Under the pieces are notes generated by a model, which made no database searches, was not told where the DNA came from, and worked only from the letters and a program-made list of their open reading frames with translations. From Planctomycetales bacterium (GTDB lineage Bacteria; 4484-113; JAFGCY01): a stretch of 32,000 nucleotides of DNA. Below, piece by piece: positions 27,572-32,000 of this stretch. Made by a program: the position numbers and the translations under genes. Each line of letters begins with the position of its first letter. The first letter of the stretch is position 1. The stretch lies in contig CP060262.1 of NCBI GenBank assembly GCA_022646745.1, positions 2,130,001-2,162,000 of the forward strand, in the 5' to 3' direction.

Positions 27572-28033
27572 TCAGCCGTCATTCTGGGCGGGTTGGCTGA
27601 GGCGCAGCACCAGTTCCACGTTGGCAAGCAGGATGCGGTCGCCGTTGCCAAGCGGACGGGCCGGCGGCGGGGCCTGGCCACTGCGCCGCGTGATGTCCTC
27701 ACCGTTGAGCAGCGTGCCGTTCGTGCTGCCGAGGTCCTGCAGGAACAGGCCGTCCTCGATCCAGACCAGTTCGGCATGCCTGCGGGAGACCACCGGCGTC
27801 TGTCCCAGCTCGGCATCCGTCAGGTCGATGTCAACCACCACGGCCGGCGGGTCATTGCGCCCGATCAGCATCCGCTCGCGCTCGATGCGGAAGCTGCGCC
27901 CGAGCGCCGGTCCGTTGGCAATCTCCAGCACGGCGTCCGGCCGCTGCGGCGCAGAGCCGTTGCCTGTCTCATCCAGCTGTTGCCTGGCGGGGCGGCCGGG
28001 GATCGGCCCGCGCCCGAAGCCTGAATCAGTCAT
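27572..28033 (-). CDS. Small FHA-domain protein
   Basis: 153 aa. FHA signature: IGRNDPP..VDIDL..VSRRHAELV..LFLQDLGSTNGTLLNGEDI. A ~45-aa Gly/Pro/Arg-rich N-terminus precedes it. The ATG overlaps the vWA stop (ATGACTGA). Confidence 0.85.
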   Translation of the reverse strand: MTDSGFGRGPIPGRPARQQLDETGNGSAPQRPDAVLEIANGPALGRSFRIERERMLIGRNDPPAVVVDIDLTDAELGQTPVVSRRHAELVWIEDGLFLQDLGSTNGTLLNGEDITRRSGQAPPPARPLGNGDRILLANVELVLRLSQPAQNDG

Positions 28034-29306
28034 GTCGCTCGTCCCGGGCAGTCCTGCTCAGAAGCGAGGTTGCCCTGTGGCGCGTAAGCTTACCAGTTTT
28101 CTTCAGTTCACTGAGCTGTTCCCGCGCGTCGGCCGCGATTTCCGGCCGGTCCACCTGCTCGGCGTTGTCAATGATCTGCTCCAGCAGGCGCGAGGTCTGG
28201 CGCGACTCGTCACTGTCCTGCAGGGTACGCATCAGCTCGTTGAGCCGGCGCCGCGATGACTCACGCTTCACTTCCTCATTCGTCTGCTGCGTGGTGCTGA
28301 AGGAATTGCTGAAGCTGACGGGCACGTCGATGCCCAGCTGCACCTTGCCATCCTGCACAAGTTCCAGCGACAGGCTGCGCCGCTCGCCCTCCTTCGATCC
28401 GAAGGGGCTGGCGGCGAACTTCACCTCCAGCAGCAGTTCCGTCGGCTGGTCCTCATTCAGCACTCCAAGGCTGGCCAGCACTGCGTCGCCATCCGGCCTG
28501 CTTTCGCAGTGCAGGAAATCCTGGCTGACGCGGCTGAGCTGCCCGCCCTGCATCCCCTGGATGTGCGTACGGATGCGCAGGCTGCTGTGGCTCGTGCTGA
28601 TCCCGCGGCAGTCCCGCAGCAGGCGCTTGAGCTCGACCGCCAGCCCGCCGGGATGCGGCTGGTAGATGAAGCGCCCGCCGCCGAGCTGGGCCAGCCGGTC
28701 CAGCAGCTTCGGGTCGAAGTAGTCCGACTCGCCGATGCCAACCGTGTACAGCCGGCAGCCTTCCTCGCGCATGCGCCGCACGCGGTCCTCCAGCAGTTCC
28801 GTGTCCGTCACCGGGTAGCCGCGCTCATCCGTCGGCACGCCGTCGGTCAGCAGGATCGCGATGCAGCTGCGCAGCTGGTCCTGCGCCAGTTCCTTGCCGA
28901 GCCAGTCCAGTGCCAGCTGCGTGCGGGTCAGGCCGCGGGGCTGCAGGCCGGCCAGCCGGGCCCGCAGTTCACTGACGAGCTGCTCCCCGCCGCGCAGTCC
29001 ATGCACCAGCTCCATCAGCTGGCTGGAGTAGACCGCGAAGTGCAGGAAGTCCTCGTTGCCAAGCAGGCGCGCCAGGGACAGTGCCGCCAGCTTGGCCTCC
29101 TCCAGCCTCATCTGCTGCACCATGCTGCGGCTGCAGTCCAGTGCCACGGCCAGTCGCAGGGCATGCTCGCCACGGGCCGGGGGAGGGGTCAGGCGGATGC
29201 GCAGGGTGTTGTCAGTCGGCTGGCTGAGCGGGATCGCCGGCCGCTCCCACTGCGCTGTGATGCCCCAGCCTTCAGCCACGCTCCACCGCCAGTCTGCCCT
29301 CTGCAT
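28026..29306 (-). CDS. von Willebrand factor A (vWA) domain protein with a MIDAS motif, a beta-rich middle region and a helical tail
   Basis: 426 aa. MIDAS elements: ALDCSRSM (DxSxS), GLTRTQL (Thr), ILLTDG (Asp). No signal peptide or TM segment is seen. ATG 29306 overlaps the ATPase 3' end by 35 nt; an alternative GTG at 29279 gives an 8-nt overlap. Confidence 0.8.
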   Translation of the reverse strand: MQRADWRWSVAEGWGITAQWERPAIPLSQPTDNTLRIRLTPPPARGEHALRLAVALDCSRSMVQQMRLEEAKLAALSLARLLGNEDFLHFAVYSSQLMELVHGLRGGEQLVSELRARLAGLQPRGLTRTQLALDWLGKELAQDQLRSCIAILLTDGVPTDERGYPVTDTELLEDRVRRMREEGCRLYTVGIGESDYFDPKLLDRLAQLGGGRFIYQPHPGGLAVELKRLLRDCRGISTSHSSLRIRTHIQGMQGGQLSRVSQDFLHCESRPDGDAVLASLGVLNEDQPTELLLEVKFAASPFGSKEGERRSLSLELVQDGKVQLGIDVPVSFSNSFSTTQQTNEEVKRESSRRRLNELMRTLQDSDESRQTSRLLEQIIDNAEQVDRPEIAADAREQLSELKKTGKLTRHRATSLLSRTARDERHD

Positions 29307-31242: not shown

Positions 31243-31967
31243 CAGCTGTCCTCCCTGTCATTACGCTCCCCGCCGCCGGGCAGCTCATCCGCCATCCTGA
31301 GGATGCGGTCCGGGTCCTTGCCCTCCCACATCAGTTCGCCCATCTGCACCTGGAAGCCCTGCTCCAGCAGTTCGTGCATCTCCGTGATCACCTGCTCGGC
31401 ACTGTCACAGACCGCCGCGCTGCCACCGCCGACCTTCGTCACGGTGCTCTTCGTGTAACCGTCAATGTCGTAGAACACCTCGCCCTCCACCGGCACGCTG
31501 ACGCTGATCCCCTGTCCCATGTCGTTGACAGCGGTGAAGGCCAGCGCCGTGGCCGGGTGGCCGGGATGCTCCTCAGTGGCTTCGCTGACGAGGAAGCCCA
31601 TCTCGGCCAGGGTCTCGCGGATACCGCGCGCGATGTAGTCACGCTGGTCCGCCTTGACCTGTGCCGCATTGGCCTTCTCCACCAGCTCCTGTTCCTTCGC
31701 CTGGGCCTGCTGCGCCAGGTCGTCCGGCACCGCAGCCGCGTTGCCAGCGCGCAGTTCCCGCGTGCGCTCGTCCATCGCTGCCACCTCGCCGGGCAGCCAG
31801 CGCATCACGGTGGTGTCAGCCTGCAGGCCAGCCACGCAGCTTTCCCAGGCCGCCAGCCGGTCCTCCAGCTCCTGCCGTTCACGGCGCTCGCGTTCGGCAT
31901 CATGCTGCACGCGCACTTCCAGCCGGTCGATCGCCTTGTCAGCGAGGCGGATGTGGTAGTCGGTCAT
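31239..31967 (-). CDS. Hypothetical protein: N-terminal coiled-coil-like region plus a C-terminal mixed alpha/beta region (no family recognised)
   Basis: An ORF in the operon frame ending at TGA 31239-31241. Start tentatively ATG 31967 (MTDYHIRL...), but the frame stays open to the window edge, so the gene could be longer or 5'-truncated. Confidence 0.55.
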   Translation of the reverse strand: MTDYHIRLADKAIDRLEVRVQHDAERERRERQELEDRLAAWESCVAGLQADTTVMRWLPGEVAAMDERTRELRAGNAAAVPDDLAQQAQAKEQELVEKANAAQVKADQRDYIARGIRETLAEMGFLVSEATEEHPGHPATALAFTAVNDMGQGISVSVPVEGEVFYDIDGYTKSTVTKVGGGSAAVCDSAEQVITEMHELLEQGFQVQMGELMWEGKDPDRILRMADELPGGGERNDREDSW

Positions 31968-32000
31968 CACCGGGTCGTCACCACGCACGCTGGCGCGCGC

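Follow-up and report, generated by a model that had tools for sequence, protein, structure and literature searches.

A radical-SAM, coiled-coil, and Clp-type ATPase cassette with apparently exchangeable regulatory genes, a candidate bacterial conflict system

The stretch of Planctomycetales bacterium contig CP060262.1 studied here (positions 2,130,001 to 2,162,000; 32,000 nucleotides, hereafter the window) ends within a minus-strand operon that belongs to a conserved, horizontally spread gene cassette. The constant machine of this cassette is a triad consisting of an NrdG-type radical S-adenosylmethionine (radical-SAM) protein, a coiled-coil protein that we call X425, and an ATPase with a single live Clp-type ring. 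The genes for a vWA protein, an FHA protein, a PP2C phosphatase, and a Ser/Thr kinase form one of at least two regulatory modules that are added to the triad. The core matches no described system in Pfam, NCBIfam, PADLOC, or the searched literature, in agreement with a sequence-only reading of the window that could assign the genes to no named system. Neither the triad nor X425 is described in that literature, which covered few subscription journals. The regulatory half is of a kind known from regulated NTPase conflict and signaling cassettes, whereas the core is undescribed. Judging from sequence, we see about an even chance that the cassette is a nucleoside triphosphate (NTP)-dependent, phospho-regulated conflict system of the anti-phage or abortive-infection type with a radical-SAM output.

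Conservation and composition of the cassette

A scan of one genome per GTDB species (185,579 species genomes) returned 63 loci, 42 of them in Cyanobacteriota, 14 in Armatimonadota, 2 in Riflebacteria, and the others in UBP7, UBP9, and a few unclassified genomes, which is a patchy distribution across 4-5 phyla. For the component census, hidden Markov models built from the seed proteins were run on six-frame open reading frames (ORFs) within 10 kb of X425, the anchor in 66 loci, and the denominators are the loci with enough sequence. The ATPase gene was found downstream of X425 in 34 of 36 loci and the radical-SAM gene upstream in 31 of 38, while the Ser/Thr kinase (21/26), FHA (19/26), vWA (18/26), and PP2C (10/26) genes occur nearby. 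The modal order is radical-SAM, X425, ATPase, vWA, FHA, PP2C, Ser/Thr kinase. Among the loci holding both genes of a pair, radical-SAM and X425 are adjacent in 30 of 45, X425 and ATPase in 32 of 53, ATPase and vWA in 18 of 27 (translationally coupled in 15 loci), vWA and FHA in 20 of 24, and FHA and PP2C in 11 of 12, mostly with overlapping codons. Because the ATPase-vWA and vWA-FHA adjacencies recur across phyla, mostly with such overlaps, the linkage goes beyond chance. The four-gene linkage of coiled-coil, ATPase, vWA, and FHA genes first read from the window is therefore conserved in related genomes, nested in a larger unit, and kinase and PP2C genes do co-occur with it.

The triad is not always accompanied by the same partners. 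Riflebacteria (L010, L073) and some cyanobacteria (L025) carry only the radical-SAM, X425, and ATPase genes, without vWA, FHA, or kinase. In Cyanobacterium- and Geminocystis-type loci (L007, L013, L016, L077), DO-GTPase genes lie between the radical-SAM gene and X425; L007 has in addition the kinase, vWA, and FHA genes downstream of the ATPase, and L013 and L016 are short contigs. The divergent lineage L075 shows radical-SAM, a 1050-aa X protein, and ATPase genes, followed by DO-GTPase-like genes and the gene for a 926-aa GAP1-N2 protein; neither L075 nor L077 has the phospho-module in the available sequence. Since the triad occurs without vWA, FHA, and kinase, and elsewhere is joined to DO-GTPase/GAP1 genes, the vWA, FHA, kinase, and PP2C genes look like an exchangeable, TerY-P-like regulatory add-on that is present in ~70% of loci. 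The phosphothreonine-gated ATPase/vWA machine proposed earlier keeps its phosphothreonine logic, which is plausible given the operon kinase and the PP2C of relatives, but the constant core is radical-SAM, X425, and ATPase, not ATPase, vWA, and FHA.

The window contains the following parts of the operon.

27572-28033, minus strand: FHA gene, 153 aa, stand-alone; FHA core (residues 56-136) at 27626-27868
28026-29306, minus strand: vWA gene, probably 417 aa with the GTG at 29279 as its start, or 426 aa if the ATG at 29306 is used
29124-29138, minus strand: DxSxS of the metal ion-dependent adhesion site (MIDAS) of the vWA protein
29272-31242, minus strand: ATPase gene, 656 aa
29272-30282, minus strand: live D2 ring module of the ATPase, residues 321-656
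29860-29886, minus strand: D2 Walker B, LLFDEIEKA
29938-29964, minus strand: D2 pore loop, GAPPGFVGY
30070-30093, minus strand: D2 Walker A, GPTGVGKT
30283-31242, minus strand: N-terminal D1-like pseudo-AAA+ module of the ATPase, residues 1-320
31239-31988 as an ORF, frame open to 32000, minus strand: 3' part of the X425 gene, residues ~172-424
31407-31409, minus strand: invariant C369 of X425
31455-31472, minus strand: YDIDGY of X425, with the invariant Y348 and G352

An ORF listing and a reading of the minus strand confirmed the four overlapping genes and the junctions that had been given for them. The X425 stop is fused with the GTG start of the ATPase gene in GTGA at 31239-31242 (4-nt overlap), and ATGACTGA at 28026-28033 holds the FHA ATG and the vWA TGA within an 8-nt overlap. 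The ATPase and vWA genes overlap by 35 nt with the ATG at 29306, or by 8 nt (GTGGCTGA) with the GTG at 29279; the shorter overlap is likelier, as NCBI annotates the 417-aa form and vWA homologues start only ~7-10 residues ahead of a conserved W-[DE]-R motif. An identical ATPase sequence is found on the 36-kb contig JAGRNS010000035.1 of GCA_020440665.1 (locus L001), which is labelled "MAG: Planctomycetales bacterium" and whose closest relatives are metagenome-assembled genomes (MAGs) of UBP7. This contig supplied the sequence beyond position 32000, with the Ser/Thr kinase gene, the radical-SAM gene, and the 5' part of X425. The genes do form a single operon, as had been proposed, but it comprises six genes rather than four, in the order Ser/Thr kinase, NrdG-type radical-SAM, X425, ATPase, vWA, and FHA. 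A 19-nt gap separates the first two genes; the following junctions are overlaps of 4, 4, 8, and 8 nt. X425 is cut by the window end and continues for 513 nt beyond it, giving a full product of 424 aa (L001 8730-10004). The kinase gene, the first of the operon, lies ~1.3 kb past the window end, and the earlier statement that no kinase is present holds for the window but not for the operon. Promoter and terminator scans at the operon ends found no sites. No protein has a hydrophobic stretch at transmembrane (TM) level (Kyte-Doolittle 19-residue window <1.6), and they are thus taken to be cytoplasmic.

Proteins of the triad and the regulatory module

The ATPase consists of a dead D1-like pseudo-AAA half and a live Clp D2 ring. 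Its best Pfam family is AAA_2 (5e-48), with AAA_5 at just 1.4e-8 and no match to AAA_3. By sequence, residues 317-654 match the D2 of ClpC/ClpB in the PDB (1e-58), and the ClpB, ClpA, and ClpV models match residues ~328-640 only, with 170-230 bits against cut-offs of 885-1900. The D2 motifs GPTGVGKT, LLFDEIEKA, GAPPGFVGY, sensor-1 FTSN, and GGRRIK are invariant in an alignment of 27 homologues, and the class I Clp/Hsp100 D2 feature set (Walker A/B, GYVG-type pore loop, sensor-1/2, and Arg finger) is complete. In the N-terminal half, the Walker A position reads LYGNIHDQF, a degenerate P-loop, and H25, N31, and D34 are invariant in the same alignment. This half has no Pfam or PDB sequence match; it contains a disordered Pro-rich insert (residues ~96-143) and a conserved hairpin, Y64-D65-x-x-D68-G69-F. 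The AlphaFold2 (AF2) model of the full-length protein, with a predicted local distance difference test score (pLDDT) of 77, aligns with two-ring ClpC/ClpA/ClpB over 510-600 of 656 columns (Foldseek E ~1e-27). The two-ring fold of the model, the restriction of the sequence match to residues 317-654, and the LYGNIHDQF at the Walker A position show that the earlier description of a pseudo-AAA half with one live Clp-type module was correct. ATPase identity across phyla is ~50%, and the core (~320-508) matches the PADLOC defence models PDC-M37B (3e-30) and DolB (3e-19).

Several known classes were considered for the ATPase. Membership in class I Clp/Hsp100 (ClpA/ClpB/ClpC) was rejected, as the two-ring fold is kept but D1 has no Walker A and the scores are 170-230 bits against cut-offs of 990-1900. 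A ClpN domain was not found, a coiled-coil M-domain was not seen in the AF2 model, and inspection of the window ATPase sequence by eye showed no IGF/IGL loop. The protein is therefore Clp/Hsp100-derived but no equivalog of ClpA, ClpB, ClpC, or ClpV. A MoxR-type ATPase was also rejected, as it had been in the sequence-only reading, because AAA_2 is the best family, AAA_5 is weak, AAA_3 is absent, and the structure model is a two-ring Clp. Another explanation would derive the cassette from a type VI secretion system (T6SS), as its remnant or its satellite, with a ClpV-like ATPase and a TagH/Fha-type FHA protein under PpkA/PppA-type control; we consider it extremely improbable. The combination of kinase, FHA, and Clp proteins has a similar logic, and there are weak matches to TIGR03345 ClpV1 (D2 region only) and TIGR03354 TagH. 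However, these reach 207 bits against a cut-off of 885 and 24 bits against 120, D1 is dead, the ClpV N-domain is missing, and no core gene (TssB/C, Hcp, VgrG, TssK, etc.) turned up on the 36-kb contig or in any of 60+ loci searched together with up to 10 kb of flanking sequence. With scores far under the cut-offs and core genes not found, a T6SS origin was rejected, and the initial judgment on this point extends beyond the window.

In the GAP1-N2-linked variant L075 (13156-15293; also L076), a stretch of ~57 nt with stop codons divides the ATPase gene precisely at the boundary of the beta-strand "...KGVFF" and the Walker A "VGPTGVGKT". The X gene anchoring L075 is found on seven contigs, and the upstream ATPase half-ORF recurs on a second contig (L076). 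A genuinely split gene, a pseudogene, and a small insertion are all candidate explanations.

The second member of the triad, X425, has no family in Pfam, NCBIfam, or PADLOC when the full protein is searched. Its 128 homologues at the 90% cluster level are all "hypothetical" proteins of 415-440 aa without a Pfam domain, and a profile of the C-terminal domain retrieved 248 clusters at 50% identity from 1.84 billion proteins, the domain being always C-terminal. The alignment has three parts, namely an invariant N-terminus (M1 S2 G3 .. K6, "MSGSPKY"), a poorly conserved coiled coil, and a strongly conserved C-domain with invariant Q285/A288/R291, E315, P320, G333, S339, P341, Y348, G352, C369, W396, K399, and D400. 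Long variants (641-1050 aa) differ in coiled-coil length alone and keep the motifs; informative domain fusions were sought in them, and only longer coiled coils were found. The divergent variants of 681-1050 aa still have the radical-SAM gene upstream and the ATPase gene downstream. In the AF2 model (pLDDT 84), seven long helices (residues 10-304) are followed by a compact C-domain of a novel alpha-beta5-alpha type, with five beta-strands (324-368) and then a helix (370-387). G352 lies in a beta-hairpin turn, C369 caps the last helix, and the N-terminal 5 and C-terminal ~25 residues are disordered.

Structural comparison gave no relative of X425. Foldseek against the PDB returned nothing below E=0.05, only weak BAR/spectrin-like helix matches, and against BFVD it returned long-helix tape-measure proteins whose TM-score of ~0.2 and root-mean-square deviation of >30 Å make them uninformative. 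The C-domain matched nothing credible in Pfam (per member, E<=10) or among PDB sequences, the best hit being a 34-residue stretch of alpha-glucosidase II at E=0.05. A papain or permuted NlpC/P60-like fold was raised because the invariant Cys caps a helix, and was dropped for want of Foldseek or profile support; X425 shows no fold like that of a glycyl-radical enzyme (GRE) either. Thus, profile searches on the four proteins of the window identified families for FHA, vWA, and ATPase but nothing for X425, which remains unrecognizable as first stated, although what was then described was an ORF truncated by the window end.

Two side observations concern X425. In the UBP7 MAGs L011 and L012 (8724-11284 each), the closest relatives at 71% identity, there are two tandem overlapping X425 paralogues that are ~44% identical to each other, compared with one copy in the window genome; this arrangement suggests a possible hetero-dimeric coiled coil. 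Furthermore, a conserved beta-hairpin, Y-[DE]-x(1,2)-[DE]-G-[FY], is common to the pseudo-D1 (YDPVDGF, residues 64-70, region 31050-31070) and the X425 C-domain (YDIDGY, 348-353), and the divergent L075 proteins have it as well. Either a shared recognition element or coincidence could account for it.

The radical-SAM protein of L001 (215 aa) matches Fer4_12 at 9e-33. With TIGR02491 NrdG it scores 114.3 bits against a cut-off of 126.1, well above the PFL-type and other activases. The motifs CX3CX2C, SGGEP, and WRGSSNQ are conserved (42 members), and there is an additional conserved C-terminal extension of ~60 aa. The loci contain no NrdD, PFL, or GrcA-like protein, and the canonical glycyl-radical motif RVxG[YF] was found in ORFs within 10 kb of any locus only in one 86-aa antisense ORF. 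In four closely related Microcoleus loci (L023, L027, L029, L057; e.g., L027 4589-5833, L029 6720-8486), a class II (B12-type) ribonucleotide-reductase-like gene, apparently interrupted by a LAGLIDADG-type intein as judged by eye, lies directly upstream of the radical-SAM gene, an adjacency that may be a coincidence.

In the regulatory module, the operon kinase is a Hanks-type protein of 646 aa with matches to Pkinase (8e-38) and, in its NosD-like C-terminus, to Beta_helix (3.5e-16). The C-terminal regions of 39 kinases fall into 12 unrelated groups, of which FGE-sulfatase/"FGS" is the largest (21/39) and others include the beta-helix of the window operon, TPR, SEL1, and DUF642 with a TM segment. 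Such a spread over many unrelated groups is the pattern expected of a diversifying sensor. The kinase matches the PADLOC models mad6 and PD-T4-6, not TerY-P; as only the ATPase core or the kinase domain is matched (PDC-M37B, DolB, mad6, PD-T4-6), membership in a PADLOC system was rejected. The vWA protein matches PF00092 (4e-8) and VWA_CoxE (2e-7), keeps the MIDAS residues D57xS59xS61, T129, and D155 in >=90% of 27 members, and has a conserved C-terminal half of ~200 aa with no known fold. The FHA protein matches PF00498 (5.6e-15) and keeps the phosphothreonine-binding residues R59/S83/H86/N105 in >=90% of 26 members, as it does G58 R59, S83 R84 xH86, and N105 G106 T107. A cytoplasmic vWA protein with a complete MIDAS, free of TM segments, and a stand-alone FHA protein had both been recognized from the window.

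The strictly conserved MIDAS, together with the VWA_CoxE match (2e-7), brings to mind the AAA+/vWA maturation chaperones (cf. CoxD-CoxE, NorQ-NorD, CbbQ-CbbO, and the Mg-chelatase ChlI-ChlD). In such a set, the radical-SAM protein and X425 would together form a new radical enzyme, which the ATPase and MIDAS protein would activate or whose cofactor they would load or repair, and the output would be metabolic and not immune. The translational coupling of ATPase and vWA genes in 15 loci, the Fe-S cluster that the radical-SAM protein needs, the invariant E315/H316/C369/D370/H380 of the X425 C-domain, which could form a metal or active site, and the class II ribonucleotide reductase gene just upstream in the four Microcoleus loci would all fit. 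We nevertheless judge this explanation to be quite unlikely, because the vWA protein is evolutionarily dispensable, as the triad is found without it, the ATPase, with its pore loop, is a translocase of the Clp type and not a MoxR/AAA_3 or ChlI-type remodeler, kinase, FHA, and PP2C are foreign to known maturation sets, and no client metalloenzyme is encoded nearby.

Proposed mechanism and genomic context

The sequences show which genes are present and in what order, that they are translationally coupled, that their motifs are intact, how the cassette is distributed among taxa, and, in one case, a defence-island setting. From this we infer every step of a mechanism with two layers, and with it all protein-protein contacts, the substrate of the radical-SAM protein, and what the system does for the cell. 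A constant core or executor triad would be controlled by an exchangeable regulatory layer. The Hanks kinase would sense a trigger via its variable C-terminal ligand-binding domain, a beta-helix in the window operon and elsewhere FGE/"FGS", TPR, SEL1, or DUF642, and would then phosphorylate a Thr on some cassette protein. The FHA protein would read this phosphothreonine mark, and PP2C, where present, would erase it and reset the system. The vWA MIDAS may clamp an acidic residue of a partner, for which the conserved acidic tail of X425 (...ADELP) is a candidate, and so couple the signal to the ATPase. X425 would act as a coiled-coil "ruler" of variable length, with an invariant disordered N-terminal peptide and a C-domain bearing the Tyr/Gly hairpin and the Cys. 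The ATPase, as a hexameric Clp/Hsp100-type unfoldase, would thread X425 through its sole live ring, from the N-terminal peptide or the tail, and expose the C-domain to the NrdG-type activase. This radical-SAM protein of the protein-glycine-activase family may act on X425 or on the ATPase-X425 complex, and its radical chemistry would be the output; it is the sole component with effector-type chemistry.

We also speculate, as a rather doubtful extension, that X425 is a new kind of protein-radical substrate. After exposure by the ATPase, the activase would take a hydrogen from G352 of the hairpin (Y-D-x-D-G-Y), and the radical would possibly be relayed to C369. In oxygenic and aerobic bacteria, an immune or suicide system would then use the resulting glycyl or thiyl radical, or O2-driven backbone cleavage, as its signal or its executioner. 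If this were true, radical-SAM chemistry on proteins would not be confined to anaerobic metabolism or to the canonical barrel fold of GREs.

The case for a conflict system rests on the patchy distribution, the variable sensors, the embedded DO-GTPase/GAP1 genes, the inserted toxin-antitoxin genes, the context on one plasmid, and the DolB/PDC-M37B-like ATPase core. On plasmid pGM01 of Geminocystis sp. NIES-3708, the cassette adjoins genes annotated as an "anti-phage dCTP deaminase", a dGTPase, a BrnT toxin, and UvrD/DUF3883 fragments, and HigB/HigA toxin-antitoxin genes are inserted between X425 and the ATPase (L077 15369-16074). A Phd/YefM-like ORF follows X425 in the Stigonema/Scytonema/Iningainema loci (L039 6747-7019 and relatives). 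A number of results weigh against this reading. Across 84 flanking ORFs of 30 loci, there is no general enrichment of defence genes, apart from one type I restriction-modification system and IetA-like AAA genes in Nostocales; a defence-island location is convincing for pGM01 only. The window neighbours are housekeeping genes (methionyl-tRNA synthetase, carboxyltransferase, proline dehydrogenase, and sigma-70) and a TPR protein gene. The cassette was not found in phage records (INPHARED) or IMG/VR, which fits a host system and gives no direct phage link. No recognizable nuclease, pore, NADase, or protease effector is encoded in the cassette, and PP2C, the phosphatase noted early on as absent, is missing from the window operon, though present in 10 of 26 related loci. 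No PADLOC model is matched by X425, the radical-SAM protein, vWA, or FHA (for vWA at E<=0.1, TerY-P included). RVxG[YF] occurs in no cassette protein, and because of this the substrate of the NrdG-type activase would be unconventional or encoded elsewhere in the genome. Finally, fast-evolving immune genes rarely keep as much identity across phyla as the ATPase does.

These points bear on a physiological, non-conflict alternative, in which a Clp-type unfoldase under kinase/phosphatase/FHA control would remodel an X425 scaffold in cell architecture, differentiation, or stress adaptation, akin to the coiled-coil-rich cytoskeletal proteins of filamentous cyanobacteria. We regard such a signaling or proteostasis device as possible, if tentatively. 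It would agree with the housekeeping neighbours of the window and the hybrid histidine kinase directly downstream, the strong cross-phylum sequence conservation, the lack of general defence enrichment in the flanks, and an X425 model that is a long helical bundle with only weak BAR/spectrin-like matches. Moreover, 42 of the 63 loci are cyanobacterial, with many filamentous genera (Microcoleus, Nostoc, Oscillatoria, Stigonema), and an excerpt of a preprint presents the vWA-STPK-FHA-PP2C operon of Deinococcus radiodurans as a stress/DNA-damage signaling module (bioRxiv 10.64898/2026.01.23.701218). On the other hand, the distribution is patchy and resembles that of horizontal gene transfer (~63 of 185,579 species genomes), one copy is plasmid-borne in a defence island, DO-GTPase/GAP1 conflict modules recur with the cassette, the kinases have hypervariable sensor domains, some copies carry inserted toxin-antitoxin genes, and the radical-SAM activase would be left unexplained.

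Should the conflict-system interpretation hold, an undescribed multi-gene system would be present in ~60 species of at least four phyla. It would unite three parts not earlier seen together, namely a radical-SAM activase without a GRE, a new coiled-coil family of ~250 clusters (50% identity), and a Clp unfoldase whose D1 ring is a fossil. The triad would be connected to one of two switches, the TerY-P-like one of kinase, FHA, and vWA or the one of DO-GTPase and GAP1. Such a system would add to the known NTPase conflict systems under regulation, and the widespread vWA-kinase-phosphatase modules would gain a concrete downstream machine. It would also pose the question of what an NrdG-like enzyme does in oxygen-evolving cyanobacteria. 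Even if the cassette is non-immune, X425, the pseudo-D1, and the C-terminal extension of the radical-SAM protein are three uncharacterized conserved domains with clear genomic partners.

Some neighbouring genes were also recorded. A 137-nt gap after FHA in L001 is followed by a gene for a hybrid histidine kinase (window 23871-27434, minus strand; 1187 aa) with a receiver domain at either end, plus GAF and several PAS domains. As this arrangement is kept in the close UBP7 relatives L011/L012 and not elsewhere, the hybrid histidine kinase is probably outside the cassette. On the other side, outside the window, a hydantoinase A/B (oxoprolinase-like) fusion of 1344 aa (L001 2057-6106) ends 20 nt upstream of the kinase gene and, given this spacing, could be co-transcribed with the cassette in this genome; its inter-domain linker has a tandem duplication of ~38 aa (...TAGTGDQGPGISKQGAGNREQEDCAASSAAPPNAET... 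twice). Two large adjacent genes at 18594-23604 (minus strand; 671 aa and at least 982 aa) show HZS_alpha (hydrazine-synthase alpha-like) and faint NHL/phytase-like beta-propeller matches. About 25 kb from the operon, the window encodes a restriction-modification methylase of the Eco57I/N6_Mtase/TaqI_C type (type IIG-like; 643 aa, 727-2658, minus strand), and the adjoining 360-aa ORF without a Pfam family (2738-3820, minus strand) could be a partner nuclease or specificity protein. In Nostocales/Oscillatoria loci (L020, L026, L028, L034, L036, L038-L040, L042, L046, L071; e.g., L071 6557-8395), an extra Cdc48-like double-AAA ATPase of ~620 aa is encoded just upstream of the cassette and matches PADLOC IetA models at 1.6e-71; five of these loci additionally encode a Laminin_G_3 protein.

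Comparison with known systems

With the MoxR-vWA pairs (RavA-ViaA, CbbQ-CbbO, NorQ-NorD, and CoxD-CoxE), the cassette shares an overlapping vWA gene with an intact MIDAS beside the ATPase gene, but its ATPase is outside the MoxR clade with its single AAA_3/AAA_5-type ring. The Thr-phosphorylation pathway of T6SS (PpkA/PppA, Fha/TagH, and ClpV) likewise combines a kinase and a phosphatase with an FHA reader and a Clp/Hsp100 ATPase. In that pathway, ClpV dismantles a helical protein assembly, which offers a mechanistic analogy for the ATPase and X425; in contrast, the cassette has no T6SS genes, an inactive D1, and no ClpV N-domain. Glycyl-radical activases are usually translationally coupled to their substrates, and the near-NrdG radical-SAM protein of the cassette is similarly coupled to the protein encoded downstream. 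It differs from NrdG-NrdD and other GRE activase pairs in scoring under the NrdG cut-off, in its ~60-aa extension, in having no GRE partner nearby, and in hosts that include oxygenic or aerobic bacteria. Dodola DolB and the PADLOC candidate PDC-M37B likewise have just one active Clp/AAA_2 ring and belong to candidate immune systems of several genes, but the match is limited to the AAA core, the pseudo-D1 and the partner proteins being unmatched, and there are no equivalents of DolA or PDC-M37A.

Excerpts of PMC11090510 describe the TerY-P triad as a TerY-like vWA protein, a PP2C, and a Ser/Thr kinase (citing Anantharaman et al. 2012; Gao et al. 2020) that provide a phosphorylation switch accessory to other conflict systems (CoCoNuTs, GAP1-N2 systems). 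The cassette similarly encodes a cytoplasmic MIDAS vWA protein and a Hanks kinase, plus PP2C in 10 of 26 relatives. However, its kinases end in a beta-helix, FGE, TPR, or similar domain instead of a Zn-ribbon or OB fold, it has an additional FHA reader, overlapping codons join the module to the Clp ATPase, and the window operon has no PP2C. Without a match to the TerY-P profile or a kinase fused to a Zn-ribbon or OB fold, membership in TerY-P was rejected. The D. radiodurans operon DRA0331-DRA0334, in which FHA and PP2C push and pull kinase phosphorylation according to the preprint excerpt, has the same set of vWA, STPK, stand-alone FHA, and PP2C in one operon; in this comparison by domain set only, the excerpt names no Clp ATPase, radical-SAM protein, or X425 for it.

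Kaur, Burroughs, Iyer, and Aravind (2020; PMC7159879) placed DO-GTPase/GAP1 and MoxR-vWA ternary systems among the "NTP-dependent conflict systems", defined the DO-GTPase/GAP1-N2 families, and listed FGS among the conflict-system domains. The radical-SAM, X425, and Clp triad is absent from that work, the ATPase of the cassette is of Clp type and not MoxR, and neither the window nor L001 has a DO-GTPase or GAP1. In common with these systems, the cassette combines a constant NTPase core with variable sensor or effector parts, is enriched in filamentous or multicellular bacteria, and shows FGS domains and kinase-PP2C-vWA themes, and DO-GTPase/GAP1-N2 genes lie inside or beside five cassettes (L007, L013, L016, L075, and L077).

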